From: an uncultured Acidobacteriota bacterium
GTDB taxonomy: Bacteria > Acidobacteriota > UBA6911
Direction of reading: 5' to 3'
Assembly: GCA_963827655.1 (NCBI GenBank)
Contig: CAWHCF010000046.1
Coordinates: forward strand, 1-64,000
DNA: 64,000 nt
Numbering within the stretch: position 1 is the stretch's first letter; every line of letters starts with the position of its first letter. Of the stretch, positions 1-30,442 are shown one piece after another. The position numbers were made by a program, and so were the translations under genes. Under the pieces are notes generated by a model. That model was not told the origin of the DNA and did not search any database. It saw nothing but the letters and a program-made list of their open reading frames with translations.

Positions 1-730
1 ACCTGACACCTGTAATTGCGGACGGTTCCACTTCCGACCGAGCTGTCTTAGCGGAGATCCATTTCATCAACAGCTCGTTCGCTGGTAAACGCGTAACGAT
101 CGAACGATCTCGCACCTCTTTCGGACGTTGAACAAAAAGTGATGTTCAGTTGCCCGATGAGCGTAAGAGCGTCGGGCGTATCCATTTTTTCATCGATCGC
201 GAAGGAGATCGTTTTTACTTAACAGACAACGAAAGTACCAATGGGACCTGGCTCAATGGAAGCAAGATCGCCGCGAAGAACCTAATAACAGGGATAATAT
301 CCGTGTTGGACCCTATTTGCTTCAGTTGAGTCTTCAAGTATCCGAACCTGCGCCGACGCCGCCCCACGAACCCGCTCCGACCAGGACTATACCGATAACT
401 CCCTTAGTCCGCATATCTTTGCGATTAGATCCCAGGTTGACGGTGTTCCGAGTGCGCAATATGCGACGAACAGGCTAACGATAGGCCGCGGGCTTGACAG
501 TAATTTGGTTCTCCACGATACCTACGTCGCGCGGTTACACTCTGTCGTAGAGCGAACTCCTACCGGTTACCTCCTGATCGACAATCACACCACAGAGGGG
601 ACGACGCTAAACGACAAGAGGGTGGTGACATACCCATTGAAAGTCGGCGATGTAATTGGTATCGGCGGCTCGAGCTGACTGCCGAGTATATCCGAGGGGG
701 CTTGGCGTTTATCCTGACCCGCAGAGCAGA
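1..730 (+). CDS. Two tandem FHA domains (5'-truncated, disrupted); probable N-terminal part of the cytochrome/oxidoreductase gene
   Basis: Hand translation gives ...TSFGR*TKSDVQLPDERKSVGRIHFFIDREGDRFYLTDNESTNGTWLNG (approx. 60-270) and TIGRGLDSNLVLHDTYVARLHSVVERTPTGYLLIDNHTTEGTTLNDKRV...LKVGDVIGIG (approx. 478-670). Both carry FHA GR..S/H..NGT-type motifs. There is an in-frame TGA at 129-131 plus frameshifts. Confidence 0.75.
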
Positions 731-959
731 GAGAACGAAAACCATCGTGGTTAAAGACAAGACTATTGTAATTAGAACAGCGGGGGTGACGGCGGCGGTG
801 GATACAGGGGCAGGTCTCCGAGAACTCAAGGGATCGCCGTTCCTTTGGAATCGGGCGAAGCTCTTGATTTAAAGCCCTCCGAAAGGAAGGACTCCATAGC
901 CGAGGCGTATTAGAGGATCTACCCCAGGACCGTCTTACACGTCCACCTCGCTAGGTGCC

Positions 960-1700
960 AACGTCGGACCATGAGGAGCCCTGGAAACTGGAGACATCCA
1001 TGTATTCGGCGCTCGGAGCTGTCTCGGTTCTCTCGCAATAGTAGCGGTGGCCAGAACCCGTACCTTCGTGCCGGAATCGCTCTCATCTTCCCATCTCCAA
1101 GGGCAGCCCAGGCCACCGATTACATTCAAGGCCTCCGATGGCACCTGTCGGGATGTCACTCGCAGGTTTATGGAATCGATCTCGGCCGTTGTAGCTCGTG
1201 TCATGACGCGCGAGTATCCGCCAAACACAGCAACGCGCGGCTGAACTGCATGGACTGTCACACGGAGCACAAGGGAGCGGATTTTCGTCCGAGCGAGGTA
1301 GGCGCCTGGCGTGCGCCAAATGCCATGACGGCCAATACACTTTCCGGGATTTCGTGGATGGATCAGCCAAGATTCTCCGTGTGCCTCACGGTGGCCGACC
1401 GATGGGCTACCCAGTACAGAAGGGCCAATGGGAGGCGGTGGCGTTTAAAGACGGAACAACGTTGACACGGGGATCCTTCCACCTAAGGCACACCGCGAAA
1501 TCAGTAGCCTGCCTTGACTGCCACAGTACTGTTCAAGAAGGCAAAGTTGATCGCGAGACCCCGGAGCTCGCGTGCAGCGCATGCCATGGGGGAAGGGACC
1601 TGGTAGATCCGACACGAATCCTCATCCGATGTACGTCATGCCATGCCCAGCACGGAGATTTCAAAGAAGTGGGTGCAGTCGAAAAGAGTTTTCCAAGGAT
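960..1700 (+). CDS. Multiheme c-type cytochrome region (cytochrome c3-like), frameshifted, preceded by a TM segment
   Basis: CxxCH motifs: CSSCH (~1190), CMDCH (~1247), CLDCH (~1510), CSACH (~1573), CTSCH (~1630), plus a C-SGCH broken by a 1-nt indel (~1146). A hydrophobic stretch and 'PESLSSSH' precede them. The region is spread over ORFs 971..1465, 1047..1244 and 1354..1827. Confidence 0.8.
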
Positions 1701-3218
1701 GCATACAAGAAACCATGGGACCAGTGGGCAGGACCGAAAGAAGGACCGGGGCCTATCTTGCCGGCTACCCGTCTACCCCGTCGGTATTCAAAGTTGTCGT
1801 TCGGAATACTCATCCCCACTCTGTTAGCACTAGCTGCTGTTCCAGTGTTACTCATCGGCGCGATCTATGCAACCATGCGCGCAAAACGGCGCGCGTACGA
1901 TCTCAGCCTCACGGCACCCTTGGAGACCCCCGCAGCCCCTCCCAAGGACCTGGACTGGGGCTTGGATCGGAGGGATACGAGAAAGGAATTTGACGATCGG
2001 ACCGTGATTCTTCCCGTGCCTGCGCCAGATCCCCAGATAAAGCATGCATATCCAATCATCGACGTCAATCTCTGCGTGGGTTGCAAAGCCTGTGTCGAGG
2101 TATGCCCCTTTGGAGTTTTAGAACTCATAAACGGCAAAGCAGTTCCGACCCTAATTGGGGCGTGCCAGGAAGACAGCGCGTGCGTCAGGGTTTGTCCGAC
2201 TTACGCCGTCAAGCTCATAGGCACAGGTAAGGTTCTTCAGACCGCTGAAATACCTGATGTAGGTGAGTCTTACGAAACGAATAAAAAAGGACTCTACTGC
2301 ATCGGCGATGTGACAAGTCTGCCGCTGATCAAAAATGCGATCAATATGGGCAAAAAGGTTATCGATCGTGTGGTTGATTCGAAGCCGTCGGGAACTGGGG
2401 AGTATGACGTCGCGATTGTTGGTGTGGGGCCCGCTGGGCTGAGTGCAGCGCTGAGCGCGCAAGCAGCGGGCCTCAATTACATTGCTCTCGAACAGGGTGA
2501 AACGGCCAACACCATCCGAAACTATCCCAGGCAGAAGCTGGTGTTGGGCGAACCGGTAAACGTCCCCGCATTCGGTCGGCTGGAGATCAAGGATTGCTTG
2601 AAGGAAGATTTGTTAGAATTATGGGATCGAATCATTGTCGAGAGCGGTGTAAAAATCCGAACGAGTCAAAAGGTTGAGAACGTTCAGGGTGAAGATGGGA
2701 ATTTTGTGCTCACCACGCCTGACAATCAGTACACGGCTAAGAAAGTAATTCTTGCGATCGGGAAGCGCGGCACGCCTAGGAGACTGGATGTCCCCGGAGA
2801 ACAACTTCCGAAAGTTAGTTACAGCCTGGTCGACGCAGCAGCTTATCAGAATAAACACGTTCTGATCGTGGGTGGGGGCGACTCCGCCCTTGAAGCGTGC
2901 ATTGGCCTGGCCGCCCAGGGCACCAACACTGTCTCGCTCTCTTACCGCAAAGAAAAATTCGCAGGGGCCAAAAGCCGTAATATTGCGAAGATAAAAGAGG
3001 AGTTCAAGAACGGAAGGGTCACGTTTATCCCGAACTCCAAAGTAAAAGAAATCCGCGAGTCGGATGTAATTTTGAAAATCAAGGAAGCCGAACAGGTCTT
3101 GCTCAACGACTATGTGATTATACTGATCGGCGGCGAACTGCCGAAGCCGTTTCTTGAGAAAGCAGGGATCCGTCTCATCCGTCGCAACCTTACTGAGGCG
3201 ACGCCGCCCGCATCTTAA
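1572..3218 (+). CDS. TM helix + 2x[4Fe-4S] ferredoxin domain + FAD/NAD(P)-dependent oxidoreductase (thioredoxin reductase/YpdA-like fold)
   Basis: Fe-S motifs CVGCKACVEVCP and CQEDSACVRVCP; FAD motif VAIVGVGPAGLSAA; NAD(P) motif VLIVGGGDSA; TM segment ILIPTLLALAAVPVLLIGAIY. The true 5' end is probably continuous with the upstream heme region via a frameshift near 1690. Confidence 0.88.
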   Translation: MQRMPWGKGPGRSDTNPHPMYVMPCPARRFQRSGCSRKEFSKDAYKKPWDQWAGPKEGPGPILPATRLPRRYSKLSFGILIPTLLALAAVPVLLIGAIYATMRAKRRAYDLSLTAPLETPAAPPKDLDWGLDRRDTRKEFDDRTVILPVPAPDPQIKHAYPIIDVNLCVGCKACVEVCPFGVLELINGKAVPTLIGACQEDSACVRVCPTYAVKLIGTGKVLQTAEIPDVGESYETNKKGLYCIGDVTSLPLIKNAINMGKKVIDRVVDSKPSGTGEYDVAIVGVGPAGLSAALSAQAAGLNYIALEQGETANTIRNYPRQKLVLGEPVNVPAFGRLEIKDCLKEDLLELWDRIIVESGVKIRTSQKVENVQGEDGNFVLTTPDNQYTAKKVILAIGKRGTPRRLDVPGEQLPKVSYSLVDAAAYQNKHVLIVGGGDSALEACIGLAAQGTNTVSLSYRKEKFAGAKSRNIAKIKEEFKNGRVTFIPNSKVKEIRESDVILKIKEAEQVLLNDYVIILIGGELPKPFLEKAGIRLIRRNLTEATPPAS

Positions 3219-3339: not shown

Positions 3340-3657
3340 ATGGCAAGTGACTATGATGATGACGAAGACAGCCTAGACATTGAGCAGCCAGAACCCGAAG
3401 TACTCAGGGTTGTAGTGCCCGCCGGTAGTGAGCTTCGTTTGAAATTCGAGGATTACTTCAAACTGTCGCGCGAAGAGAGGAACAGAATCGAGCTGGAGCA
3501 ACCTGAGACTTTTCGCAACGGGCAATACGGCAAGATTATCAGTGGTGGCACAACCGGTACGGAGGTTGAGCTTCCATTCGAAAACTTGGGAACGGCAATT
3601 CTCTTCTTTTGGGATAGTAAAGGCCATTTGTTGCGTAGCGAGCAGATTTTCCCTTGA
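3340..3657 (+). CDS. Hypothetical acidic protein
   Basis: ORF 3313..3657 with likely ATG at 3340 (MASDYDDDEDS...). No family recognised. Confidence 0.6.
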   Translation: MASDYDDDEDSLDIEQPEPEVLRVVVPAGSELRLKFEDYFKLSREERNRIELEQPETFRNGQYGKIISGGTTGTEVELPFENLGTAILFFWDSKGHLLRSEQIFP

Positions 3658-3877: not shown

Positions 3878-4543
3878 TTGTTCCTAGATCCACCGGATGG
3901 GCAAACCTCGTATTCATCAACATGGGCGCGTAAGTTGAAAAAGTCACCCCACAGCCCGGCTGGGCATTTTGCCCTCGCAGATGATGCAGCCGTGCTTGTC
4001 CAGAGGGTTGCGGGCGGGGATGCGCACGCTCTGACGGCTCTTTACGATGGTACGAACCGGCTGGTCTTCGGTTTGGTGTTGCGAGTTCTCGGCGATCGGG
4101 CGGCCGCCGAAGAAGTGCTCCTGGATGTATATACCCAGGTCTGGCGCCAGGCCGCCTCGTATGACCGGGGACGCGGCTCACCGCTGGCCTGGCTGATGAT
4201 GATAGCTCGCACGCGCGCCATCGATCGGCTTCGATCCGGAAGACAGGCTCAGAAGCGCAGCGAGCCGCTCGAGAAAGCGCTGGATGAAAGATCTCCGGTA
4301 GCTGATCCCGAACAGGCAGCGGTGACTTCTGAGCGCGAGACGATGGTTCGATCGGCGCTTGAATCGCTTTCGACCGAACAGCGAGAAGTGATTGAACTGG
4401 CTTACTACAAGGGGCTGAGTCACAGCGAAATCGCGATGCAGCTCGGCCAACCGCTCGGGACTGTGAAAACTCGGACCCGGCTGGGAATGATCAAGTTGTC
4501 GGAATTGCTGGGTCCGCTGGTTGAGGGGAAGGAAATTCGGTGA
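3878..4543 (+). CDS. ECF RNA polymerase sigma-70 factor (SigK-like)
   Basis: Region 2 (AEEVLLDVYTQVWRQAASYDRGRGSPLAWLMMIARTRAIDRLR) and region 4 (QREVIELAYYKGLSHSEIA...LGTVKTRTRLG). The true start is probably downstream of 3878. Confidence 0.93.
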   Translation: MFLDPPDGQTSYSSTWARKLKKSPHSPAGHFALADDAAVLVQRVAGGDAHALTALYDGTNRLVFGLVLRVLGDRAAAEEVLLDVYTQVWRQAASYDRGRGSPLAWLMMIARTRAIDRLRSGRQAQKRSEPLEKALDERSPVADPEQAAVTSERETMVRSALESLSTEQREVIELAYYKGLSHSEIAMQLGQPLGTVKTRTRLGMIKLSELLGPLVEGKEIR

Positions 4544-4620
4544 CAGGCACCAAATTGCGCGGTTGGAGAGACCAAGGACCGGTGGTTGGCTACGCAATTT
4601 GGTGCCTGTCACCGAATTTC
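4532..4620. repeat. Perfect 28-bp inverted repeat with 33-nt spacer (REP/MITE-like)
   Basis: GAAATTCGGTGACAGGCACCAAATTGCG (4532-4559) and its reverse complement at 4593-4620. Confidence 0.9.
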
Positions 4621-4659
4621 TTCGGCTCGAAGAACCGGTAAAGGTCTAGAGGCGTTAAA

Positions 4660-5496
4660 TTGAAGCACGAAAACGTAACCGAAGAAATCCAGGAAACAGC
4701 CTCGCTGTACGCACTTGGCGCTCTCAGCCAGCATGAGGCGCGAGCCTTTAAATTTCATATGGATGAGGGCTGCGAAGTATGCGCGCGTGAGCTGGTTCGG
4801 TTTGAGAGGGTGCTGGCCGGACTGGGAATGGGCGCCCCTGAGGTCGAGCCGCCGGCCTACATTCGCGATCGGCTGGCAGCTCGCCTGGAACAAGAACGCC
4901 AGGTTTCGCCTGCCCCGCTTCGCGGGCCGGTCGAGCAAAAAAGTGTCTCGCCCCCCGCTCGACCCTACCTCCCATGGCTCATTGCCGCGTCGGTGGCTCT
5001 CGTTGCGCTGGTCTCTTTTGTTGAGTATCGGCGGTACCAGGAAGTGGATCGGCAGCAGCAGATCGTTGCTTCAACTCGCAACGAAGCCGCACAACTCCAG
5101 GCTCAATTAGAGCAACAAAAAGGAAGGCTCCAGGAGCTCGAGCAGATGAGGGACGCGCTAAGCGCCCCGGAGTCTCGCGTCATATTCCTTTCCGGCCAGG
5201 AGCCTGCTCCACCAACCTCGGCTACTATCGTATGGGACACAAAGGCGAACCGCTGGCTGGTGACTGCCAACCTGCCACAGCCGCCTGTCGGCAAGGTCTA
5301 CCAGCTTTGGTTCGTCACCGCCTCAGCCAGGGTATCGGCAGGTTTGATCCAACTCGACTCCACCGGACGCGGTTTTGCGGTCGTGCAGGTCCCGTCTGAA
5401 ATCGGCAAGATCGCTGCCGCCGCCATCACACTCGAACCCGCGGGAGGTTCGCTTCAGCCCACAATGCCCATTTACGCTCTTGGCAAAATCGGGTAA
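4660..5496 (+). CDS. Anti-sigma factor, RskA family
   Basis: N-terminal zf-HC2-like motif (LYALGAL...HMDEGCEVC), one TM, and C-terminal VYQLW...AAAITLEPAGGS..PT. Lies directly downstream of the ECF sigma. Confidence 0.92.
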   Translation: MKHENVTEEIQETASLYALGALSQHEARAFKFHMDEGCEVCARELVRFERVLAGLGMGAPEVEPPAYIRDRLAARLEQERQVSPAPLRGPVEQKSVSPPARPYLPWLIAASVALVALVSFVEYRRYQEVDRQQQIVASTRNEAAQLQAQLEQQKGRLQELEQMRDALSAPESRVIFLSGQEPAPPTSATIVWDTKANRWLVTANLPQPPVGKVYQLWFVTASARVSAGLIQLDSTGRGFAVVQVPSEIGKIAAAAITLEPAGGSLQPTMPIYALGKIG

Positions 5497-8364: not shown

Positions 8365-8401
8365 ATGGATTCCCGGTCCCCCCGCCTTTACCTTCTTCGC
8401 C

Positions 8402-8785
8402 ATGCGAACCGACATCCCTATCCTCCGCCCAGATCGCATCCGCCGGCGCCACGGCAGTTTCGGATGGATCGAACATCGCTTCATCCGAGAGGGCTTCCTG
8501 GAAGGTCTGCATCATCCGGAAGCTCTGCTCTATGTCTTCCTGGCTATCGTGGCCGACCAACGAGGTATATCGTTCTACTCTCAAGACCGAATCCGCTATC
8601 TCTTACGTATCCCTCACGCGCATACCCTGCAGGGAGCCATCAACGAACTCGTCGATCGTGATTTGTTGGCGTACAGTTCCGGCATCTACCAAATCCTAGA
8701 TCTACCGGCTTCAGCCGGTCTCTACGATCGATCACACGATCTCAAAAAACCAGGTCAACATCGAAACCTGTCCCTCTCTCCGTGA
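8402..8785 (+). CDS. Winged helix-turn-helix protein resembling phage replication-organiser N-terminal domains
   Basis: EALLYVFLAIVADQRGISFYSQDRIRYLLRIPHAHTLQGAINELVDRDLLAY. The stop overlaps the YR1 start. Confidence 0.7.
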   Translation: MRTDIPILRPDRIRRRHGSFGWIEHRFIREGFLEGLHHPEALLYVFLAIVADQRGISFYSQDRIRYLLRIPHAHTLQGAINELVDRDLLAYSSGIYQILDLPASAGLYDRSHDLKKPGQHRNLSLSP

Positions 8786-9828
8786 TGTTTATGAGCAATA
8801 AGATCCGTCTTCAATATGAGCCGTCGACGACCGCCAGCCGTTGTCCTTATCGCTTGCTGGATCGCACAGATCGGGAGATCAAATGGGCCTGTCAGTTTCT
8901 CGATGCCCAACAAATACGCGGCCTCTCTCCGGCCTCCCTGCGAGCCTATGGCTACGACCTGTTGAACTTTTCCAAGTGGTTGCATAAAACACGATCCTCT
9001 GTATCCAGTCTCAACCAAACGTGTCTGCTCAGCTACGTTCGTTACCAACTCAACTGCCAACCTAACCCCACCCCTCAAACCATCAATCATCGACTGGTTG
9101 TCTTACATTGTCTTTATCGATTTCACTATGGTTGCGATATCCCCCAGGGCCAAGTTACCATCCAGTCTAGTTATAGAACCCGCAACCCTCTCGGCTATGG
9201 AAAACCTCGACGCCGACTGGCCCGCTTACGATTGAAGCAACCACGTCGGGTCGTGATTCCTCTTACCGCCGATGAGGTTGCCCGCTTCTGGTCCAGCTTT
9301 CGTTCTTTTCGTGACCTCAGCCTTGTCGCTTTGATGCTCTTCAATGGCCTCCGCTCGCGCGAGACTATCCAAATTCAACTCGAAGACCTCCATATCTCCC
9401 AAGCCCAGCTCCGCATCCTCGGAAAGGGCAAAAGAGAAAGAATCGTTCCCTTAGCCGACGAAACTATACAGATACTGCAACGCTACCTAGACGTGGAACG
9501 ACCTCTGGGCAACTCCTCTTATCTCTTTCTTTCTCTCAAAGGCCCCCATCGAGGCCAGCCCATGACTTGCGCCGGCCTGCGTTCTCTGTTTCGCCATCAC
9601 CGCCGCTGCAGTGACGCTCCTCAAGCGAATGCTCACCGCTTTCGACATACGTTCGGCTCCGATATGGTCCGCGCCGGCTTGTCCTTGCCGGCTCTGATGC
9701 GACTGATGGGCCATTCCAATATTCACACCACCATGCTTTACGTCGAACTCTCCCGTGAAGATGTGTGGCGCGAGTATCAACTTGCGCTTCAGCGCCGGGC
9801 TTCACTTCCTCCGCCAAAGGTCCCATGA
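8782..9828 (+). CDS. Tyrosine recombinase/integrase 1
   Basis: SAM-like N-domain (SLRAYGYDLLNF); catalytic GLRSRE, GKGKRER, HRFRH, LMGHS, TTMLY. Confidence 0.95.
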   Translation: MMFMSNKIRLQYEPSTTASRCPYRLLDRTDREIKWACQFLDAQQIRGLSPASLRAYGYDLLNFSKWLHKTRSSVSSLNQTCLLSYVRYQLNCQPNPTPQTINHRLVVLHCLYRFHYGCDIPQGQVTIQSSYRTRNPLGYGKPRRRLARLRLKQPRRVVIPLTADEVARFWSSFRSFRDLSLVALMLFNGLRSRETIQIQLEDLHISQAQLRILGKGKRERIVPLADETIQILQRYLDVERPLGNSSYLFLSLKGPHRGQPMTCAGLRSLFRHHRRCSDAPQANAHRFRHTFGSDMVRAGLSLPALMRLMGHSNIHTTMLYVELSREDVWREYQLALQRRASLPPPKVP

Positions 9829-10991
9829 ATAGACATCGGCAAGACCTCCAACAATTATTCGACTCTCACATTCAAAATCTCGCCCTAACCCTACGTCCCA
9901 ACTCCGTGCTCAGCTATCGAACCGCTGCCAGTTGCTTCCTCAACTACCTTGCTTCTTCTTATCCTCAGATTAACCGGTTCTCCCAGTTGCGCCGCGCTCC
10001 TCATATCCTGGGTTGGCTGCGAACCCTCTGTGAGAAAACACCCCCCTATAAGAGCGCAACCCGAATAGCCTATTTGATTCGTCTTCGTCGTCTGCTCCAA
10101 GACCTGGCTTCAAATCAAAAGAATTCAGGCGAACAAGACCTCATTGTCTCGGAAGATTTTCCTCCCCTTGATGCCTATCTCCCTAAGCCCCTTTCTCCAG
10201 AGGACGATCGTCTCCTGGATCAGCAACTCCGTAAAAATCCGGACCTCTCCCATACTGGCTTGCTGCTCCTGCGCGCCACCGGTATGCGAATAGGGGAATG
10301 TGTTAGTCTTTCTACAGACTGCCTGCGACATCTGCAAAAGGACCAGTGGGTCCTGCGAGTCCCGCTGGGAAAGCTTCACAACGAAAGATGGATCCCCGTC
10401 GACGACGAGATCCGCAAATTCATAGCCCGCCTTCTGTCGTTGAGAAACTTGGCCCTCAATACCTCCTCAAATCTCCTGATCCCACAACCCCGCGGACATC
10501 GTTATGCCGGCGAGGTTATCAGACACTCTCTTGATGCTGCCGCAAAGCGTGCGGGTTGCTCCACCCACATTACACCGCACCAACTTCGGCACACCTTCGC
10601 AACCGAAATGCTACGTGCAGGCATGAGTCTTCCGGCTCTAAAGGAGCTGCTCGGTCACAAATCGATCCTCATGACCATGCGCTACATCGATGTCAGTCAG
10701 ATCGATCTGCAGCAGCAATACCTCCAGACGCGCCAAAAAATAGCCAGTCGCTACATCGTTCCTAAACAACCGCTAGCAAAAAACAGAGCGACTCAAGCGA
10801 CAACATCGGGCATCCATACAATCTGCGCCTCAGTGGCTGCTGCACGCCACATGCTGGAGATGTACAGACGTCGACATACCGATAAACACCTCGACAAGAA
10901 ACTAAAGCGATTCATATGCCGGCTGGATCGCGTTGCAAAAAACTCTCGCAGCTTGACAGCACCCCAAAATGAGAACAAATTGGCCGGTCAA
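9825..10991 (+). CDS. Tyrosine recombinase/integrase 2 (no stop at element end; reads through)
   Basis: ATGA overlap with YR1; catalytic GMRIGE, LGKLH, HQLRH, LLGHK, MTMRY. The last codon inside the TIR is CAA (10989-10991) where TIR symmetry predicts TAA. Confidence 0.92.
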
Positions 10992-11036
10992 GTCACCGTA
11001 ATTGCGAACAGCCGCACTAAGGCAAGGGAAGGGTTC

Positions 11037-12776
11037 ATGACGAGAATAAGGATCTACTGGCTGGTGATCCTTTTGCCTCTTTACCTGGAAGACCCACGCG
11101 CGTCCGCCGCGCAAGAGAAGGCGGATCTCGTCGTGGTGAACGCAAAGGTCGTGACCCTGGACAAGGAATCTCGCGTGGTCGAGGCTTTCGCAGCGCGGGA
11201 GGGCAAGTTTGTCGCGGTCGGGAGTACGACGGAAATCAGGGGATGGGTCGGGCCTCAGACCAGGGTGATCGATGCGCATGGCAAGACCATTGTACCCGGG
11301 ATCATCGAAAGCCATTCTCATGCGTCGGCCGTAGCCCGGGCCGAGGCGGCCGAACCTTACCAGGAGATGACCTCGATCGCCGTCATTCAGGAGTGGGTCC
11401 GACGCGCGGCTCAGAGAAAACCTGAAGGTGAATGGATTGTGATTCCCCGATCCTACCCGAGCCGCCTCCGTGAACGCCGCTTCCCTTTCCGGGCCGAGCT
11501 TGATGCTGCGACCACTCGCCATCCGGTCGTTTTTGACGGAGCCTACGCGCATGTGTTGAATAGTCTTGCTCTGGAAAAGGCAGGTATTCGGCGCGATTCG
11601 CCCCCCCTTGCGGTCGGTGAAATCGTCCGGGATGCCGCCGGTGAACCGACCGGGCTCCTGCGGAATGCGCGCGGTCTTCTGGGCAAGTTTTTTCCTGCGC
11701 CCAAAGTCTCCAGCGTCGAGGTCCTGAACCGTCTCGAAGAACTGCACCAGATCTATGCTTCCCTCGGGATCACCAGCATGATGGAACGGGCTGGAAGCAT
11801 CGAGGATTATCGAAGGTATGAGGAACTCCGGGCGCAGAATCGCCTGAAGCTTCGCACGCGGTTCACCCTTCGGCTGCCTGGGACGACGTCAGCGGAAGCG
11901 GAGAAGTTTATCGGGAACTTACCTCTGAAGCCCGGCGGCGGCGACGAATGGCTGGCGCCTGGGCCGCTGAAGATCACGGTAGACGGTGGCATCCTGCTGG
12001 GCACGTCGTTCATGCGCGAGCACTACGGCGCAAAAGCCGTGGCGCTCTACAGCCTTACGGATCCTGATTACCGCGGCAGCCTCAGTCTCGAGCCCGAAAG
12101 CATCACGGCCCTGATCACCACCGGCCATCGTCTGGGGTGGCAGATGTCCGCTCACGTCACCGGCAACGCCGGGGTCGACCTGGTGCTCGACGCCGTCGAA
12201 GCCGCCGGGAAAATCCGGCCCATCGAAAAATCGCGCTTCAATCTCATTCACGCATACTTCCCCGACGCGGCCACAACGGCGCGCGCCAGGAAGCTCGGCG
12301 TCTGCCTCGACACCCAACCCGCCTGGTACTTCAAAGACGCCGACGCCTTGCTGACCGCCCTGGGCTCCGAACGGCTCAGCAAGTTCGTAGGGGTGCGCGA
12401 ATGGCTTAAAGCAGGGGTTCCGGTCGCAGCCAACACCGATCACATGCTGGGCATGGATCCCAATCGGGCGCTGAATCCTTTTAATCCCTTCCTCACGATG
12501 TATGTACTGGTAACCCGCAAGACCGAAGGGGGACAGGTGATCGGCGCGGCCCAAAAAGTGTCGCGCGAGCAGGCGCTGAGAATGATGACGCGGGACGCAG
12601 CCTACCTGACTTTCGACGAAGACAGGAAGGGTTCGATCGAAGCGGGCAAATTTGCGGACTTTGCAATTTTATCGGATGATTACCTGAGCTGTCCGCCGGA
12701 GAAGATAAGGAACATTCAAGCCGATACCACGATTGTGGCAGGCCGCGTAATCTACGAGCGCAAACCGGCGCCGTAG
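11037..12776 (+). CDS. Secreted amidohydrolase (YtcJ/amidohydrolase 3 family)
   Basis: Own ATG with upstream purine-rich RBS and a signal-like N-terminus; motifs IVPGIIESHSH, LKITVDGG, SAHVTGN, LIHA, KGSIEAGKFADFAIL. Confidence 0.9.
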   Translation: MTRIRIYWLVILLPLYLEDPRASAAQEKADLVVVNAKVVTLDKESRVVEAFAAREGKFVAVGSTTEIRGWVGPQTRVIDAHGKTIVPGIIESHSHASAVARAEAAEPYQEMTSIAVIQEWVRRAAQRKPEGEWIVIPRSYPSRLRERRFPFRAELDAATTRHPVVFDGAYAHVLNSLALEKAGIRRDSPPLAVGEIVRDAAGEPTGLLRNARGLLGKFFPAPKVSSVEVLNRLEELHQIYASLGITSMMERAGSIEDYRRYEELRAQNRLKLRTRFTLRLPGTTSAEAEKFIGNLPLKPGGGDEWLAPGPLKITVDGGILLGTSFMREHYGAKAVALYSLTDPDYRGSLSLEPESITALITTGHRLGWQMSAHVTGNAGVDLVLDAVEAAGKIRPIEKSRFNLIHAYFPDAATTARARKLGVCLDTQPAWYFKDADALLTALGSERLSKFVGVREWLKAGVPVAANTDHMLGMDPNRALNPFNPFLTMYVLVTRKTEGGQVIGAAQKVSREQALRMMTRDAAYLTFDEDRKGSIEAGKFADFAILSDDYLSCPPEKIRNIQADTTIVAGRVIYERKPAP

Positions 12777-12875: not shown

Positions 12876-13431
12876 ACGCCGCTCGTCGATTTCATGAAGC
12901 TACGTGAGCGACGACGACTGATTGCGATGATGACGCCGGCCACAGCGTCTCGTTCGGTCGGAAGACGCAGGTGCTGGAGGAAGGATTGCGTGCAATTGGC
13001 ACTGGGGCATCAAGGACCGCCTGGCCCGAGCTGGACACGCGCAGGCTTCAGCGTGATTTGGTGGACGCTGAAATCTCATTGCTGATGCTTCGATGAGGGG
13101 TCACGATGGGAAGCGATTGCTGCGGCGGATATGCGGTTCAGCCGAACAGAGCGCGTGCGTCTTGAGATTCGGTGGGCTTGGTCCGCGCGATGGCAAGTGC
13201 CTGCACGGCTAGGTGCTCGATCGCGGCGACATTCTCACGCAGGTGCCGGTGCGAGTTGGCGAGCGCACGGATGAAGGATCGGGTCAGCGGTGGATCACCG
13301 CGGATGTCACGCTTGCTGCGCTGAGCTCGCCGACTACGCCATTGAGGTCGTGATTCAACGCGAGAGCGGCGAGCAGCGCGTCCTGACGCCGGTGCGGGTC
13401 GTCAGGTGAGCCGTACAACGATGAGATCGCT

Positions 13432-16121
13432 CTAGTCCTGGCGCAGCGCCATCATCGGATCGATCCGCGCGGCGCGCCACGCGGGCAGGAGCGTGGCCAG
13501 CAGCGCGACGCAGACGAGGAACGCGGCCGCGCCGACGAACGACACGGGGTCGCGGGCCTCGACGCCGAACAGCAGCGACGCGAGGTAGCGGGTGCCGGCG
13601 AACGCCGCGGCGAGCCCGAGCACGAGCCCGACGCCGACCGGCACCATGCCCTGCCGCACGACGAGCGTGACGACGCTGCCCGACCGGTGCGCCGAGCGAT
13701 CGACGAATGCCGATCTCGGGCGCGCGCTCGGTGACGAAGTACCCGAGCACGCCGTACAGCCCGACGGCCGCGAGCACGAGCGCCAGCACACCGAACAGGC
13801 TGAAGAGCGTCGCGCCGAGACGGAACGGCAGCACGTCACCGCGGATCCTCTCGGCGAGCGGCTCCACGGACACGAACGGCAAGTCGCTGCGCAGGCCCTG
13901 GAGCGCGGCGCGCACCGCCGCCGCGTCTCTGCGCCGGGTTGCGCGTCCTCACGATGAGCGAGGGAGTGCCGAAGGGAACCGCATTCGGCGACTGCGCCCA
14001 CGCCAGGAACACTCGCGGCTGCGGCTCGTCGTCGAGATAGAAGCGACGCTCGGACTCGACGACGCCGACGATGCGCGTGCAGCCGCCACGCTTGACCTGC
14101 CTGTCGAACGGCACACAGAGTCCAAGAGCGTCGCCATCCGGCGCGATCAGTCGCGCCATCGCGTCGTTCACCACGGCCACGGGTTCGCCGCCTCGCCGGT
14201 CCGTCGCCTCGAAGGTGCGACCGCGCAGGAGCCGGGTGCCGGCGGCCTCGAAGTAGCCGGGACCAGCCACGGTCGAGGATCCCAGGCGTCTGCTGGATCG
14301 TCGATTCACCCGGCCTGGCCCAGAACGCCACCGGCATCCCGCCGTGGAACGGCTCGAGGTGGACGATCGCTGCGCGCTCGACGCCGGGAAGATTCGAGAG
14401 CCGCGACGAGCGCGCTCTCGTAGAACGCCTGGCGCGTCTCCGGCGTGTAGCGGGCGCGCCGCAGATCGACTCTGGCGACGAGCACGCGATCGACGTCGAC
14501 GCCGCTGTGAATCGCATTCACGTGCTGCAGCGACCGCACGAACAGGCCGGCGCCGACGAGGAACGCCAGCGACAGCGGCGATCTGCAGCACGACCAGCGC
14601 CCGGCGCGTGTGGTTCCGTCGTCAGCGCGCCGCCGGCGCGCGAGTCCTTGAGCGCCTGTCCGGGATCGACCTGCACGGCGCGGATCGCGGGAAGGATGCC
14701 GAAGAGCAGCGCCGGTCAGCAGCGAGACGTCCCAGCGCGAACGCGAGCAGTCGCGCGTCGATGCGTCCGGCCGACGGCGGCAGCGGGAACTGCTGCATCA
14801 GTCCCATCGCCCAGTACGCCAGGACCACTCCGGCGACGCCGCCCAGCAGCGCCAGCACCGCGCTCTCGGTGAGATGCTGCCTCGCCACGCGCCACGCCCC
14901 CGCCCCGAGCGACAGCCGAACCGCGAGCTCGCGGCGCCGCGTGATCGCCCGCGCCAGCAGAAGGTTCGCCACGTTCGCGCACGCGATGATGAGCACGAGC
15001 GCGGCGACCAGCGCCAGCCACAGCGACAAATCGCCGCCGCTCGTGCCGTCCGAGCGCTGCCGCCAGCACGATGGGAGACATCAATACTTCCGGCGTCGGA
15101 TCGAGCTCCGCGTCCGCGGCACGCAGCGCAGCGCTTCCGCCGCCTGCCGCGCCGCGGTCGAATCCTCGGCGCCCGGCGCCAGCCGGGCGACGTAGCGCGA
15201 CACAGAAGCAGTCGACCGTGCGCCAGTCGCCGTCGGCGCTCAGCCAGCCCGAGAGGTCCGGCCATCGACGAGGGCAGCCACACGTCGACGCCGTCCGCGT
15301 CGATGCCGGCGAAGCCCTTCTCGGTGACGCCGACGATCTCGAGCAGCACGCCGTTCACCAGCAGGGTCTTGCCGACCGCGTCGGCCGCGCCGCCGAAGCG
15401 CGACTGCCACATCGCGTGGCTGATGACGGCGACCGGGTGCGCGCCCGGCACTCCGTCGTCCTCCGCGACGAAGAACCGGCCGAGCGCGGGGCGGATCCCC
15501 AGCACGCTCCAGGAAATCGTGCGAGACCACACTGGCGCGCACCTGCTCCGCTTCGGCGCCGCGACCCAGATCGACGAGCTCCGGAGGCAGGTACGCCCCG
15601 ACGCCGGCAAGCGCCGGCCCGCTGTCGCGCATCGCGACGTAGTCGACCCACGAGCCCGGCCCGCCGATCGGCGTCTGCATGTGGCCCGCGTCGCGTTTGA
15701 TGTACAAGCCTGGCGCACCGATCCCGGCGTCCGCTACCCCGGCCGGCGCACGCAGGAACAGGCCATCGACGACGCTGAAGATCGCCGTCGTGCCGCCGAT
15801 GCCGAGCCCGAGCGTCGCGACCGCGGCCGCGGTGAAGGCCGGCTGCTTGCGGAGCATGCGAGACGCAAAGCGCACGTCCTGCCACACGCTCTCGACGACC
15901 GACTCCCAGCCGACGTCCCGAACCCGATCCTTCACCGCTTCAACGCTGCCGATCTCGACGCGTGCGGCGCGAACGGCGGCGTCGCGGCTCATGCCGCCGG
16001 ACATTTTCTCTTCGGCGGCCGTCTCCAGGTACTCCCGCAGTTCGTCGTCCAGGTCCTGTTCCGCGCGGTTCTTCTGGAACAGGCCACGGAACCCGCCGAT
16101 GACGCGGCTGAAGATGGTCAT
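13432..16121 (-). CDS. ADOP-type duplicated ABC permease (MacB/FtsX domains), multiply frameshifted
   Basis: Fragments: AEQDLDDELREYLE..WQDVRFASRMLRKQPAFT..LGIGGTTAIFSVV; LIIACANVANLLLARAITRRRELAVRLSLGA; EIGIRRSLGA; LPAWRAARIDPMMALRQD. Very high GC. Confidence 0.88.
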
Positions 16122-16472
16122 CACAACTCTCCCAGTGAGGCCTTGAGGATTCTCGAGATGGCGGCGGTCTGGACCTCCCAATCGCGCGCCTCGTGCTTGA
16201 ACCTGGCGCGCCCCTGCGCGGTCAGCCGGTAGACCTTCGCGCGCCGGTTGTTCTCGGTGACCTGCCAATCGCCTTCGATCAGGCCGTCGCGCTCGAGACG
16301 GCGCAGCGCGGGAAAGAGCGATCCGGCGTTGACGAGGAAGACGCCTTTGCTGATCTGCTCGAGGCGGGCGCCGATCCCGTAGGCGTGCATCGGTTCGAGC
16401 GCCAGCGTCTTCAGGATGAGCATGTGCAGCGTGCCCTGCACCAGGTCGGTTGGCTTTGCCTCGGCCGGCCAT
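16121..16472 (-). CDS. PadR family transcriptional regulator (acidobacterial type)
   Basis: DLVQGTLHMLILKTL..MHAYGI..GSLFPALRRLE..W..TENNRRAKVY. ATG at 16472 with GAGGAGG RBS needs a 1-nt correction. Translationally coupled to the permease. Confidence 0.92.
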
Positions 16473-16498
16473 GGCGTCGTCCTCCTCGCGGTCTCATC

Positions 16499-16546
16499 TA
16501 GATAAACTAGACAAGCGAAGGATACGCCTCTTATCTAGTTTGTCAA
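16499..16546 (-). promoter_or_regulatory. Sigma-70 promoter overlapped by an inverted-repeat operator (probable PadR site)
   Basis: On the minus strand, TTGACA (16546-16541), 16 nt, TATCCT (16524-16519). Arms TAGATAAACTAGACAAG and CTTATCTAGTTTGTCAA. Confidence 0.7.
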
Positions 16547-20989: not shown

Positions 20990-23897
20990 ATGCCTGTTTA
21001 CAACCCGCACGATATCGAGGCCCGGTGGCAGGAATACTGGGAGCAGAACAAGACCTTCCGCGCGCCGGATGATAGCGCCAAGCCCAAGCTGTACGTGCTC
21101 GACATGTTTCCCTACCCATCCGGCGAAGGGCTTCACGTCGGACACCCGGTAGGATACACCGCCACCGACATGTATTGCCGTTTTCAGCGCATGAGAGGTT
21201 ACAACGTCCTGCACCCCATGGGCTACGACGCCTTTGGCCTGCCGGCCGAGCAGTATGCTATCGAAACGGGAACCCACCCCCGGGTCACAACCGAGCGCAA
21301 CATAGCCAATATCCGGCGGCAGATCAAGCGTCTGGGCTTCAGCTACGACTGGGAGCGCGAGTTCGCGACCACCGATCCGGAATACATGCGCTGGACGCAG
21401 TGGATTTTTCTGGTCCTGTTCGACACCTGGTTCGATCCCGATGTCGAATGGACCGACCCTCAGGGGAAAAGCCGGCGCGGCCGGGGACGCCCGATCAGCG
21501 AGCTCCCCGTGCCCCAGGAGATCACCGCTCAAGGCGAGAACGCGGTGCGGCGTTACCGGGATTCTTTTCGCCTGGCCTATCAAGCGGAGGCGCCCGTGAA
21601 CTGGTGCGAGGCGCTCGGCACCGTGCTCTCGGACGAAGAGGTCATCGACGGGCGTTCAGACCGCGGCAATCATCCGGTGCAGCGAATCCCGCTGCGGCAA
21701 TGGATGCTGCGCATTACCGCCTATGCCGACCGGCTGGTCGAGGACCTCGAACTGCTTGACTGGCCCGACCCCATCAAAGAGATGCAACGCAACTGGGTGG
21801 GGCGCAGCGAGGGGGCCGAAGTAGATTTCCTCGTGAGTGGGGAAAAGACTGTTTTTCACGATTGGAAAGAGGAACGAGCCAGGAAAGGATTTCCCGCCGC
21901 CGCCGAAACCGAAGCCATCCGGGTTTATACCACGCGTCCCGATACGCTTTTTGGAGCTACCTACATGGTGCTGGCGCCCGAGCACCCAATGTTGGAGCGG
22001 CTCACGACGCCTGAGCGCCGCGCGGAGGTTGAAGCTTATCGTCAGCGAGTGGCCATGATGAGCGAGGAGGACCGCATTGCGGGGCGGGGAGAGAAGAGCG
22101 GAGTCTTCACCGGAGGGTACGCTATAAATCCTGCCAATGGGGAGCGGGTTCCCGTTTGGATCGCCGACCACGTCCTGATCAGCTACGGCACAGGGGCGAT
22201 CATGGCGGTGCCGGCTCACGACGAGCGAGACTTCGAGTTCGCCAGGAAATTCGGGCTGCCCATTCGAGCCGTTGTCATGCCGCCCGACGAGTGGCTCTCC
22301 CGGGCGTCGGCGCCTGGTAGCGATCTATCCCCGGATAAGGCCGGGCAATACCTCAAAAAACCGGAGGCATTCTCGTCGGTGTTTGTCGATGACGGCACCG
22401 GCGTCCAATCCTCGAATCCTGGCGTGTCTCTCGATGGATTGCCGACAGGGCAGGCCAAGAAGGCAATGACGCAGTGGTTGGTGAAATCAGGACTGGGAAA
22501 ACCGGCCGTAAAATACAAGCTTCGCGACTGGCTTTTCAGCCGGCAGCGCTACTGGGGTGAGCCCATTCCGATCCTGCACGAAGTCGACGTCAGCGGGAAT
22601 CCGACCGGGCTGACGCGTCCGGTGCCCGAGGATCAGCTTCCGGTCCTGCTGCCGGAGCTGGAAGACTTCAAGCCCACCGGTCGTCCTGGCGGTCCGCTCG
22701 AGAAGGCTCTCGATTGGATTCATGCGGGGGAAATCCCACCCGCCCAGGAGAAAGAAGACTCCGTCACGCTCAAGATCGACTCGAACCAGACCCTGATGCT
22801 TCGGCGAGAGACAAATACCATGCCTCAATGGGCGGGTTCGTGCTGGTACTACCTGCGTTTTTGCGATCCGCGCAACAGCTCTCCGGCCCTGGGATCCGAT
22901 GAAGGAGCGCTACTGGATGCCGGTCGATCTGTACGTCGGCGGCGCCGAACACGCGGTTCTGCATCTCCTGTACTCGCGCTTCTGGCACAAGGTACTCTTC
23001 GATCGAGGGCACGCTTCCACGCTGGAGCCCTTCCGCCGCCTGATCAACCAGGGGCACATACTGTCGATCACCTACCGCACGCCGGAAGGCCGCATCATCC
23101 CGTACTCCAGGATCAAGTTTGGCGAAGGAAAGGCTGTGCATGCGGAAACCGGCGCGGAGCTTGCCGGCGAGACCGAGAAGATGTCCAAATCGCGGGGCAA
23201 CGTGATTCCCATCGACGAACCGCTGCGGCAGTACGGCGCCGATACAACGCGGCTCTACGAAATGTTCATGGGACCGCTGGAGGCGACCAAGCCCTGGAGC
23301 ATCCTGGGCGTCGAAGGGATCAGCCGTTTCCTGAACCGCGCCTGGCGCATGATTGTCGATGAAGAGAGCCCGATGCTCCGTTCCAGCTCGAAGGTGGTGG
23401 AAGGCGATGAGGCGGAGGCGCAGCCCACGCTCGAGCAACTCCGAGTCCTGCACAAAACCATCCAGGCGGTGACCGGGGACCTGCAGCAGCTGCGGTTCAA
23501 TACTGCGATCAGCCGTCTGATGGAGTTCGTCAATTTCTTTACCGGCCAGACCAGTCGCCCGCGCGCTTGCGTCGAGCCCTTCGTGCTCATGCTCGCGCCG
23601 CTCGCCCCTCATATTGCGGAAGAGATGTGGCAGGCCCTGGGACACCTTGAATGCCTGGCTTATGAGCCCTGGCCGCAGTTCGAGGAACAGTACACCCGCG
23701 ATGATGTGGTCGAATTGCCGATCCAGATCAACGGGCGCGTCAGGAGCAGGCTGTTAGCGGCCGTGTCGTCGAGCCGGGATGAGCTGGAACGCGCCGCTCT
23801 CTCCGACGCAAAGGTGAAGAAGTATATCGAAGGCCGCGCGGTCGGAAAGGTGATAGTCGTTCCCAACAAGCTCATCAATATTGTCGTGAATTTGTAG
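20990..23897 (+). CDS. leuS: Leucine--tRNA ligase (one frameshift near 22885)
   Basis: [21 protein letters not shown] editing domain, [32 protein letters not shown]. Confidence 0.97.
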
Positions 23898-26101: not shown

Positions 26102-29100
26102 ATGCGAAATCGCTCCCTGGTTTTGCTTTTCCTTCTTATCGGTTCGGTCGCCAGGATCTCGGGGCAGACTATCTCGGGGCAGGTTTCCGGGACAGTTTTT
26201 GATGCGAGCGGAGCCGTAGTGCCAGAAGCTCAGATCGCCATCCGGAATGCCGGTACCGGCAACATCGAGCGAACCTCGACCAACGAGAATGGATACTTCG
26301 TCTTCACCGACCTCCTGCCTGGAACCTATGAGCTCGAAATCGAGCGGCAGGGCTTTCAGCGCTTCATCGAGTCCAAGATCATGCTCAGCGCCAACGGCAA
26401 GTTGACCGTCAACGCCCGGCTGGCGCCGGGGGTTTCGAGCGAGGTCGTGCAGGTGACCGCGCCGGTCAACCGGGTCGATACCAGCAGCGGTGAGATCAGC
26501 GCGGTTATCACTCAGCGCCAGGTCACCGGGCTTTCTCTCAATGGCCGAAATTATATCCAGCTCCTTCAGTTGATTCCCGGTGTTACGGTGGATTACACCT
26601 CCTCCTTCAACTCCATCACAACTGTTAGCGAACAACACGTCAACGGTTTGCGCGGCAACACCAGCGGGCTGATGGTCGATGGATCGTACAACCTGGATGT
26701 CGGCTCCAACGGCACAAATCTGGTGAATCCGAGCATCGACAGCATTCAAGAGGTGAAGGTCTCGACCAACTCCTACAGCGCAGAGTACGGCCATGCTCAG
26801 GGAGCCCAGATCAACCTGGTAACGCGCGGCGGTACCCGCGCCTTCCACGGGGGTGCCTTCGAGTTCCTGCGCAACGACAATCTCGACGCCAATGATTGGA
26901 TCAGTAATCGATCCGGCCTGGGCAAGCGGCCGTTGCGTTTCCATGACTACGGGGCCTATCTGGGCGGCCCCATCTTTGTTCCCGGGCACTGGAATACCGA
27001 CCGCAGCAAGGCTTTCTTCTTTTTCTCGGCGTCGTTCCGTCACAACACTCTGGGCACGGCCCGTACGGGGAACGTTCCCACAGCCGAGGAGCGGCAGGGA
27101 GACTTTCGCAACTCGTCTCTGGCGGTTCCGCTGGATAGTCGAACGCGCCAGCCGTTGAATCCGGAAAATCCCAGGGTCCTCCCTTCGAGCCTGTTCTCAA
27201 AAAACGGCCCTCCTCTTCTCGAACCCTATCCGCTGCCGAATACGACCGGGCCTGGATTCAACTTCATCACCCAGACGATCGCCTCGAATCCCCAGGAGGA
27301 GCAGCTGCTTCGAGTCGATTACAATGTTTCAGACCGCACTCAGGTGTTCTTTCGCTGGATCCGCGACCTCTTTGATTCCGCAGATCAATCCAGCGGCAGC
27401 GCCCTTGGAATGGTGGGCAATACCAATCGAAGGAATGGAACTCAGATTTCGCTGAACCTCAGCCACACCTTCAGCCCGATGATGGTGAATGTCTTCAACT
27501 TCTCGCTCTCGGGAAACCGGATCGATAACTTTCCGGTGGTGGATAACTTCACCCGCGAAGGACTCGGCTTGACCTATCCCAAGCTGTTTCCCTCGAACCG
27601 CTACCAGGCCGGTCCGGATGTGAGCGTCCAGGGGTTGACCGGCTATGGAATCGGCGCCAACCTGCAAAACTTCCAATGGATGTTCGTCTGGCGCGACGAC
27701 CTGACCTACGTGAAGGGGAATCACGCCATGAAGTTCGGCGTCTGGATCGAACGTTACCGCAAGAACGCGAATGTCCTTCAGGGTGGGCCAAGGGATAATG
27801 GCTCGGTCAATTTCGCAACTTCCTCGGCGCTCTCCAGCGGCAACCCCATTGCCGACGTGCTGCTGGGGAATTTCCAAAGCTACGGAGAGTCGAGCGCCGA
27901 TTCCGTGGTCTTCACTCGCTACACCCAGATCGAGGCCTATGCTCAGGACAACTGGCGCGTGCGCCCGAACTTCTCGGTGGAATATGGCGTGAGATACGTG
28001 ATCTCGCCCGCAATCTACAGCGCCTTGAACAATGTCATCGCGTTCCGGCCGGAATTGTACGACCCGTCCCAGCGGCCGCGTTTCAACAGCGACGGCAGCC
28101 TTGCGCCGGGGGTGGGGGACTTCATCGGGGAGTTCTACGTGAATGGTCTTTCGCTGCCGGGCGAGGGGTGGCCGAAAGGAGCGACGGGACGGGTGGCAGC
28201 CGCCTCGGATCCCGCATACGACCGGCTCTTCCGAGGCGTTCCACGGGGAAGCTACGAAAACGCGTTACAACAATTTCGCTCCACGCATTTCGATTGCCTG
28301 GGACCCGACCGGCGCCGGAAACTGGTCGATCCGCGCGGGAGGGGGATTCGCCTACGATCGAATTCGCAACGGAAGCACAATTCTCACAGGGCTCGGTGTT
28401 CCTTTCCTGCAGCGCACGACCATTTTCGACGCCAACCTCGACCTTCCAACCGCCGGGCGAGTAGGCCCGATTCTCCCCTCGGCGGTCACTTCCTGGAGCC
28501 CGGTGGTGAAGACTCCAGCGGTCTACAGTTACAGTGTTGGCTTTCAACGGCAGCTTCCGGCCGCCATGCTGGGCGAAGTGCGCTACGTGGGCACGCTGGC
28601 GCGCTACATCACGATGGGGACGGATTTGAACGAGCTGCCGCTTGGAACCAGGCTGATTCCCGGCAACGGTTCTCTGCCGAGAGACAGCCTGCGCCCCTTT
28701 CCCGGTTTCGGCGCCATCACCTGGCTGACCGCGCAAGGTTCGTCGAATTATCATGGCCTGCAGACCTCTCTGGAACGCAGGCTCGAATCGGGCTTGCGCT
28801 TTGGAACCGCTTACACCTGGTCGAAGGTGATAACCAACGCCACTTCGGAGCAGTCGATTGGAGGAGTCCAGAACTCCTATGACCTCCGCGCCGAGCGGGG
28901 TTTGGCGGACTTCGACCGCACCCATGTGCTGGTCATGAACTATAACTGGGAATTGCCGTTCTTCGCCGGGCGCGGCGACTGGCTGGGTAAGACTCTCGGG
29001 GGATGGGAGTTGGCCGGCATCAATAATTTCACGTCCGGTCTCAACTTCACGCCGAGCTTTTCCTTGGCCGGGGATCCGACCGGAACCGGAAAAACCAGCA

Positions 29101-30320: not shown

Positions 30321-30442
30321 CCTTAGAGCCTTCGAGTCTCGCGGTTGAGTGCCATCCTCGCCGACACCCCATATCAATTCCCCCTGCGCAAAAGTATAAT
30401 TCACGTCACGAGAGCTTTGGTGGCTCGTCATTGGAGGTACGT

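Follow-up and report, generated by a model that had tools for sequence, protein, structure and literature searches.

The window analysed here, 64,000 nucleotides of contig CAWHCF010000046.1 from an uncultured Acidobacteriota bacterium (assembly GCA_963827655.1), opens with a 5'-truncated gene in which forkhead-associated (FHA) domains, a transmembrane (TM) helix, a heptaheme cytochrome c domain, a second TM helix, a ferredoxin and a flavoenzyme are joined. This fusion is real and conserved, and it reshuffles modules of uncharacterised multiheme/cytochrome b clusters that had already been noted (the Gallionellaceae FHA-nonaheme cluster, PCC4/Ptd and PCC3). The reading that we favour, at a probability of about 0.6, is that the gene encodes both ends of an inner-membrane conduit that takes electrons from NAD(P)H to the periplasm and is gated by signals. 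That the protein is a subunit of such an inner-membrane electron conduit is probable.

The C-terminal open reading frame (ORF) was searched among longer proteins, and the best of the 39 matches was P0001, an intact protein of 1189 residues that contains all the domains and is 61% identical to that ORF. Frameshift-aware alignment showed that P0001 spans all the junctions in one ORF and that window positions 12-3200 are colinear with its residues 107-1189; 625 of the 1043 aligned codons were identical (60%), so the match is not due to chance. Because the alignment starts at P0001 residue 107, the gene runs off the start of the window and its 5' end lies outside; P0001 holds one more FHA domain there, and by this alignment a third FHA domain probably lies upstream of nucleotide 1 in the window gene. 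Joining the window to the P0001 frame took nine frameshifts (near positions 270, 401, 667, 813, 911, 1033, 1149, 1301, and 1702), every one net -1, and two in-frame stops (at 129 and 952), all at or before nucleotide 1702. The original prediction, made from the letters and the ORFs, had held that single-nucleotide corrections would join the parts; what needs correcting is these nine shifts and two stops. Pfam matches and the P0001 alignment bore out its order of parts, all on the + strand, and PF00498 matched both FHA domains that it had named. It had also seen no convincing start for the oxidoreductase; the homologs do read unbroken through this region, but a TTG at 1758 precedes the second helix (TM2) and is used as a start by the public gene call P0087, the window's own ORF.

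The lesions appear to be sequencing or assembly errors, because 88 of the 89 family-invariant residues are kept (28/29 in the broken half and 60/60 in the intact half, the sole miss being a Trp read as a stop) and because leuS is split as well. The essential gene leuS (20990-23897) falls into two overlapping ORFs that match profile positions 144-510 and 517-843, sppA (30431-32180) is likewise split in two, and a TonB-dependent receptor gene (26102-29495) is frameshifted near 28.1 kb; therefore the assembly has indel errors. A real pseudogene, with a decayed 5' half and perhaps a TM2-ferredoxin-flavoenzyme protein expressed from TTG 1758, was judged most improbable, although several observations favour it over an intact gene. 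Lesions are far denser in 1-1702 than in the remainder of the window, with 11 lesions within 1.7 kb and none after (clustering p about 9e-4), and natural TM-ferredoxin-flavoenzyme genes occur. The best-scoring single-base repair lengthens a base run in only 2 of 9 cases; homopolymer errors usually look different, and a simple account by such errors is unsupported. Identity over the linker and the first helix (TM1) was 52% between the window and P0001 and 59% between P0001 and P0040, slightly less conservation than expected. However, the broken half keeps its invariant residues, its heme region is 64% identical to P0001 (P0001 vs P0040, 56%), all nine shifts are net -1, three other genes are broken too, and a comparable break lies in the first FHA domain of L001, which comes from a different assembly. 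A thinly covered contig end at nucleotide 1 would account for the clustering of the lesions. Programmed frameshifting was rejected, since nine shifts would be needed and the relatives are unbroken. The gene is very likely intact and single in the organism.

Proteins from the C-terminal ORF search, from a search with a region of P0001, and from a profile search (150 matches listed among 50%-identity representatives) were pooled into a fetched set of 186. When at least one FHA domain, at least five CxxCH motifs, a ferredoxin and a flavoenzyme were required in that order in one ORF, 61 of the 186 proteins qualified, with one to five FHA domains each, and one of the other 125 was the window's own gene call. 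The fusion was also intact or near-intact in the genome loci L001, L004, L023, and L053, and the predicted single polypeptide of more than 1000 residues was thus supported. Variants comprised four heme-less proteins (P0046, P0048, P0050, and P0055), about 10 tetraheme proteins with no FHA domain, and FHA-TM-heme proteins of 467-524 residues without the enzyme (at least 120, all of the matches listed in a further search); in L021 the two halves are separate genes with another gene between them. The search with P0001 residues 405-740 returned P0001 and P0040 only. The window grouped with these two on flavoenzyme-core trees, on which the deep nodes were not settled; the fusion label needs 3-11 changes on them, and we make no claim of a single origin or of a sequence of changes. 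Named hosts were mostly Acidobacteriota, especially Blastocatellia, and the seven fusion-type loci were labelled Acidobacteriota (4/7), a deltaproteobacterium (1/7) and Bacillota (2/7, possibly mis-binned). By its genes, the window too appears acidobacterial. No full-length match was found among 211 plasmid records, but this search led to the cluster of Sphingobium herbicidovorans pMSHV.

Table 1. Features of the fusion gene in the window.
Feature	Position	Strand	Basis and remarks
5'-truncated FHA(n)-TM-heptaheme-TM-ferredoxin-flavoenzyme fusion gene	1..3218	+	Colinear with P0001 107-1189; visible part about 1066 codons, missing upstream part expected to be about 106
FHA domain, second of three in P0001	51..330	+	PF00498, E 1.7e-11 (frame 3, 132-326); alignment
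Membrane-proximal degenerate FHA domain	409..720	+	PF00498, E 1.4e-13 (frame 1, within 298-675); motif scan of relatives; alignment
Predicted cytoplasmic linker with conserved W-x-P-T-x-D	721..996	+	Frameshifts near 813 and 911; stop at 952 replaces invariant Trp
Predicted TM helix 1, in to out	997..1052	+	Hydropathy peak 1.88; crosses frameshift near 1033
Predicted periplasmic heptaheme c domain	1070..1660	+	PF14522 and PF14537 above cut-off; conservation
Predicted TM helix 2, out to in, then basic stretch	1800..1875	+	Hydropathy peak 2.56
Dicluster ferredoxin	2052..2215	+	PF00037; one four-Cys motif, one with Asp at second ligand
Segment homologous to C-terminal FAD-domain part of YpdA/TrxR, placed before GxGxxG	2250..2390	+	Circular permutation
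YpdA/TrxR-like FAD and NAD(P)H domains without CxxC	2400..3218	+	Stop at 3216-3218

The N-terminal FHA domains and the C-terminal enzyme are predicted to be cytoplasmic and the hemes periplasmic, in agreement with the original prediction, because a positive-inside (Lys/Arg) bias was found at TM1 in 56 of the 61 relatives and at TM2 in 57. A His lies inside TM1 in 1/61 and inside TM2 in 4/61 relatives. On these sequences the protein alone cannot be a wire across the membrane, because its two helices are without heme ligands; the transmembrane redox transfer that had been proposed for the protein itself finds no support in that form, and relatives encode a separate cytochrome b-like partner and a cyclic nucleotide monophosphate (cNMP)-binding ferredoxin.

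FHA domains that read phosphothreonine carry the motifs GR, SxxH and NG. The first visible FHA domain has GR and NGT with Gly at the Ser of SxxH, besides the stop at 129 and the frameshift near 270; the second, with frameshifts near 401 and 667, is missing the Ser and the Asn of the motifs, as is its counterpart in P0001, so the SxxH Ser is missing from both. All three motifs are present in each of the first two FHA domains of P0001, and a pattern scan found 51 of 119 FHA domains complete, with at least one complete domain in 38 of 61 relatives. The linker Trp (W426) was invariant in 24 of 24 aligned relatives. The fusion-type loci offered no support for the suggested link to a Ser/Thr kinase, with no kinase motif in any of the seven and no kinase by Pfam among the 26 and 80 ORFs scanned, the second set including 79 of the 149 candidate neighbour ORFs.

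In the six-frame reading, the + strand has six intact CxxCH motifs, at 1190, 1247, 1312, 1510, 1573, and 1630, and the alignment to P0001 showed a seventh, broken, at 1146-1160; the earlier count of five intact motifs and one broken was therefore too low. Seven candidate distal His were located (1092, 1226, 1268, 1387, 1480, 1489, and 1651), and six of them fall in a majority column of the relatives. Conservation of seven extra His alongside seven hemes suggests that all seven are bis-His electron-transfer hemes. Bit scores exceeded the Pfam cut-offs (PF14522, 31.4 against 24.8; PF14537, 26.4 against 25), and with one extra His per heme the domain has the sequence features of the bis-His cytochrome c7/c3 type. 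A model of the L021 heme domain (pLDDT 79) gave no Foldseek match at E <= 0.001 and a best VIA Z of 3.1, and the fold searches on this model show neither a new nor a known fold. The best ESM Atlas score for the heme region, 0.81, is a lead only.

Fer4 and Pyr_redox_3/2 were matched in ORF 1551-3218. Both predicted iron-sulphur (Fe-S) motifs are present, but in the second of them an Asp occupies the place of the second Cys; at this position the 61 relatives have Asp (28), Cys (26) or another residue (7). The flavoenzyme is circularly permuted: profile positions 129-146 align to Bdr 277-294 and positions 177-440 to Bdr 4-270. All 61 relatives share this order and also the fused ferredoxin, which was part of the selection rule. 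A model of window 2031-3188 (pLDDT 92) had Bdr as its best fold match by Foldseek and VIA (Z 23.8, rmsd 4.8, 262 aligned), with TrxR and FNR at Z about 18-20, and thus has the predicted fold of Bdr/YpdA, two dinucleotide-binding domains without a redox Cys pair. Opposite the CAVC of solved TrxRs the window has residues other than Cys, and no CxxC precedes the NADPH-binding GxGxxS in any of the 53 scorable relatives (8/61 were not scorable). Scores were 159.6 bits for TIGR04018 (YpdA, cut-off 339.9) and 89.5 bits for TIGR01292 (TrxB, cut-off 343.45). The TrxB/YpdA-like enzyme of the original prediction thus stands as a YpdA/TrxR-like fold; assignment to TrxB was rejected on the missing CxxC and the TIGR01292 score, and assignment to Bdr/YpdA proper on the TIGR04018 score and the permuted chain. 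A TrxR fold, no CxxC and an Fe-S partner are the features of a TrxR-like ferredoxin-NAD(P)+ reductase, and the window protein has all three. In the 32 of 61 relatives that the pattern matched, the residue after the NAD(P)H-binding strand is an Arg, which by the usual rules is consistent with NADPH.

Bdr/YpdA (PDB 7A76 and 7A7B) and the TrxR-like ferredoxin-NADP+ reductases have the closest solved fold and, like the window enzyme, no CxxC, but they are soluble, unpermuted and free of a fused ferredoxin, and the window enzyme differs in each respect. In the parts of its description that were available (10.1101/2020.12.02.408641), the GGPCG of Bdr holds a Cys, where the window has Ala; Bdr itself is a tetramer that reduces bacillithiol disulfide. 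The likeness to Bdr, which also has no redox Cys near the flavin, and the occurrence of split and heme-less forms would suit a tethered Bdr-like reductase (or oxidase) of small-molecule disulfides, the heme part working separately with cytochrome b and quinone. This is highly unlikely, given the score far below the YpdA cut-off, the permuted order with fused ferredoxin in 61/61 relatives, and the recurrence of chains in which the enzyme is joined directly to the membrane domain.

Other features of this enzyme family were recorded. Blastocatellia-type members (P0015, P0028, L021, L070 and their kin) have an insert with four Cys, resembling a zinc ribbon, within the NAD(P)H domain; a further Cys follows their ferredoxin. 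Elsewhere the permuted flavoenzyme is fused to TPR repeats (P0005, P0007, and P0008), adjoins a Ser/Thr kinase (L055 and L008) or lies among glycosyltransferase genes (L083).

A genome scan by flavoenzyme motifs gave a set of 80 loci from 294 confirmed stretches. Among the fusion-type loci, L001, L021, L023, and L053 have upstream DNA, and L004, L016, and L070 are without it. All four of the former have, directly upstream, a polyferredoxin of the cNMP-binding kind and a membrane domain of the di-heme b type, with tandem cNMP-binding domains, several 4Fe-4S motifs, and two WX3HX13H motifs in the membrane domain; these modules are fused in L021 and L023 and are separate genes in L001 and L053. 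The gap between the partner and the FHA-heme gene was 5-41 nucleotides where both ends were called. All four partners have a motif like the phosphate cassette of cNMP-binding domains. The WX3HX13H membrane domain was found in 63/80 loci, fused to the flavoenzyme in 6/80, and was matched in 13 of the 186 fetched proteins; its four His were invariant in 60/60 aligned sequences (4 of the 64 matches were too short and were left out). Inside the window itself there was no match to the membrane domain or the Fe-S partner, whose genes would be expected upstream of nucleotide 1. A cytochrome with at least ten hemes occurred in 57/80 loci, together with the membrane domain in 54/80, and in none of L001, L004, L016, L021, L023, L053, and L070. 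Pfam named no porin family beside the fusion operons, and likewise none among 13 candidates from PCC3-like loci. A predicted complex between the membrane domain of L023 and the TM1-heme-TM2 part of the same locus scored 0.11 against a mark of 0.32 and was not used as evidence. LOG/SLOG genes, which belong to nucleotide signalling, lie near the fusion in L001 and L021. Pentose-phosphate genes (zwf, opcA, gnd, pgl; rpiA, tkt, tal) flank two of the six flanked fusion-type loci, L070 (1909-11327) and L053 (3095-7381), a possible link to NADPH.

The fusion itself was not described in the literature searched, which was largely without subscription papers; Supplementary Figure 4 of He 2017, on the domain order of PCC4 redox genes, may bear on its novelty. 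The claim that no characterised protein has this layout thus holds for the fusion in these searches, but FHA-TM-multiheme proteins with similar neighbours are in print. Section 6.3.2 of a Ferrigenium preprint (10.64898/2026.01.22.701106) describes an FHA-TM-nonaheme protein (NHC) with five-helix and 4Fe-4S neighbours, and by its authors' account there FHA domains with multihemes were previously unreported. One table row of PMC9900912 gives a 'Forkhead-associated protein' with 10 motifs. Rows of Table S6 in He 2017 (PMC5566968) give a nine-heme cytochrome of 544-556 residues, an inner-membrane protein of 308-310 residues and a redox protein of about 800 residues, and the available parts of that paper argue that inner-membrane proteins of the WX3HX13H type bind two b hemes. 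Sphingobium herbicidovorans pMSHV (B6S01_RS18455-18445) encodes a flavoenzyme-cNMP-ferredoxin, a membrane protein and an FHA-TM-decaheme cytochrome; the cytochrome matches the family profiles (FHA, E 4e-10; heme, E 1.4e-15), and the membrane protein and cNMP-ferredoxin match the fusion-locus partners. We infer that the Table S6 rows, the Ferrigenium NHC and the Sphingobium cluster belong to one family, the Gallionellaceae members having been compared by description only. A link to conflict systems was not found in the accessible parts of PMC7159879 and PMC8195603.

The Gallionellaceae/Ferrigenium NHC cluster resembles the fusion in its cytoplasmic FHA domain, helix and periplasmic multiheme domain; it is without a porin, a family that Pfam did not name beside the fusion operons either, and its neighbouring five-helix membrane protein and Fe-S protein recall the four fusion-related loci. 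However, the NHC and Sphingobium proteins have a single helix, 9-10 hemes and the enzyme on a separate gene, whereas the fusion has two helices, seven hemes, one to five FHA domains and the enzyme attached; the Sphingobium flavoenzyme is in normal order and fused to the cNMP-ferredoxin, whereas that of the window is permuted. As far as the accessible text goes, PCC4 (PMC5566968) and ptdABCDEFG (10.1101/2023.11.21.568154) unite an FAD/NAD(P) oxidoreductase, a 4Fe-4S cNMP protein, a ferric-reductase-like protein and multihemes in one operon, a set that L001, L021, L023, and L053 share by domain content only. By the same text they also have a porin, and their pentaheme, tetraheme and decaheme cytochromes are distinct proteins, with no FHA domain reported; such cytochromes are absent from the fusion loci. 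PCC3-like clusters have the same WX3HX13H membrane-protein type as the fusion partners, and 54/80 loci were PCC3-like, with a TM-ferredoxin-permuted flavoenzyme of 430-460 residues about 40% identical to the window's C-terminal half. Unlike the fusion loci, they have 20-68 hemes, no FHA domain and no cNMP partner. The permuted enzyme beside such clusters was not described in the literature searched, and the words 'ferredoxin' and 'FAD' are absent from the main text of He 2017 (PMC5566968), where flow is modelled to quinone. A Sel1-ankyrin protein often follows the TM-ferredoxin-permuted flavoenzyme in PCC3-like loci (among L002-L077, many phyla).

Architecture, topology and gene linkage are given by the sequences, and from them we infer a scheme of cofactors, binding, direction, acceptor and regulation. 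In TrxR-like ferredoxin reductases, the FAD splits the electron pair of NAD(P)H and passes single electrons to Fe-S clusters. The FAD of the fusion would likewise take two electrons from NAD(P)H and hand them singly to the fused Fe-S clusters, from which they would pass to the Fe-S clusters of the partner, its two b hemes, the seven bis-His c hemes and a periplasmic acceptor. TM1 and TM2 would tether both ends to cytochrome b and transport no electrons. Flux or assembly may be gated by cyclic nucleotide through the partner and by phosphothreonine or protein docking through the FHA domains. An outward direction would be thermodynamically easy, and the chance that the flow is outward and fed by NADPH is about even.

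Several observations weigh against this scheme. The genes upstream of the window gene lie outside the window, and the gene context comes from the four loci with upstream DNA, relatives of 33-41% identity and one of them in split form, not from the closest relatives P0001 and P0040. Hemes are not always needed, because heme-less variants exist. Bdr, in the available text of 10.1101/2020.12.02.408641, reduces a disulfide directly and is a poor flavodoxin reductase.

Helices without heme ligands would also suit a one-component redox sensor, in which the periplasmic hemes read the redox state outside and control the flavoenzyme through the helices while no electrons cross. The layout of TM, periplasmic domain, TM and output is receptor-like, FHA and cNMP signalling modules stand alongside, and the genes directly downstream in L070 encode a cAMP phosphodiesterase of class II and an FHA-GAF-cyclase. 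A sensor is nevertheless unlikely: the covalent link is dispensable, as the 120 listed FHA-TM-heme proteins without the enzyme and the separate halves in L021 indicate, a two-heme-type membrane domain lies upstream in 4/4 loci, and seven hemes would suggest a wire over a single sensing site. An inward conduit, in which a periplasmic donor would feed the hemes and these either quinone or, energetically uphill, the Fe-S/FAD centres and NAD(P)+, is quite unlikely. Models in the accessible parts of the papers on related clusters (Ferrigenium nonaheme, PCC3/PCC4) do draw the flow to the quinone pool, and a related cluster is common in iron-oxidizing Gallionellaceae, as far as the part available of PMC9900912 goes. 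However, the fusion loci have no giant cytochrome and no porin gene beside the operon by Pfam, NAD(P)+ reduction from heme potentials needs an energy input for which no module was seen, and the named hosts are mostly Acidobacteriota.

The genes downstream in the window were rejected as parts of the system by neighbourhood comparison: an acidic 105-residue ORF (3340-3657; no Pfam match, ESM Atlas 0.76, a lead only) and the RskA-type anti-sigma gene match 0/83 loci, and the ECF sigma factor that precedes the latter (3878-5496 for the two) weakly matches two loci; the pair is not conserved beside the fusion family, and promoter and terminator counts were at chance level. Two tyrosine-recombinase-like ORFs occupy 8400-12776, and the second continues in frame into an amidohydrolase-like gene (a 1003-residue ORF), as if an element occupied the 5' end of that gene (labels from reading translations). 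A patch of about 70% G+C (13300-16500; window overall 59%) holds a heavily fragmented ABC permease-like gene, and two ORFs of the - strand (56425-59170) share a Ser/Thr kinase with a TolB-like propeller.

The fusion brings together modules so far seen one by one in several multiheme clusters that are uncharacterised, and it points to a testable cytoplasmic enzyme that would feed or drain them. Gene callers hide it in error-prone assemblies, where only the last 486 residues were called. If the conduit reading is right, soil Acidobacteriota and others have a route, under second-messenger control, by which electrons move between NAD(P)H and the periplasm, and PCC3-like conduits must be redrawn at their inner end. 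A soluble ferredoxin-flavoenzyme of 390 residues and the two-gene version in L023 offer practical starting points. More speculatively, the system may be an analogue of a regulated NADPH oxidase or ferric reductase: a complete wire from NAD(P)H through FAD, Fe-S and heme b to heme c in two or three subunits, widespread, switched by cNMP and phosphothreonine, and at its most compact in the two genes of L023, with a permuted TrxR-like flavoenzyme also connecting PCC3/PCC4-type conduits in many phyla to NAD(P)H. If this were true, PCC3/PCC4 conduits would not be tied solely to the quinone pool as modelled.

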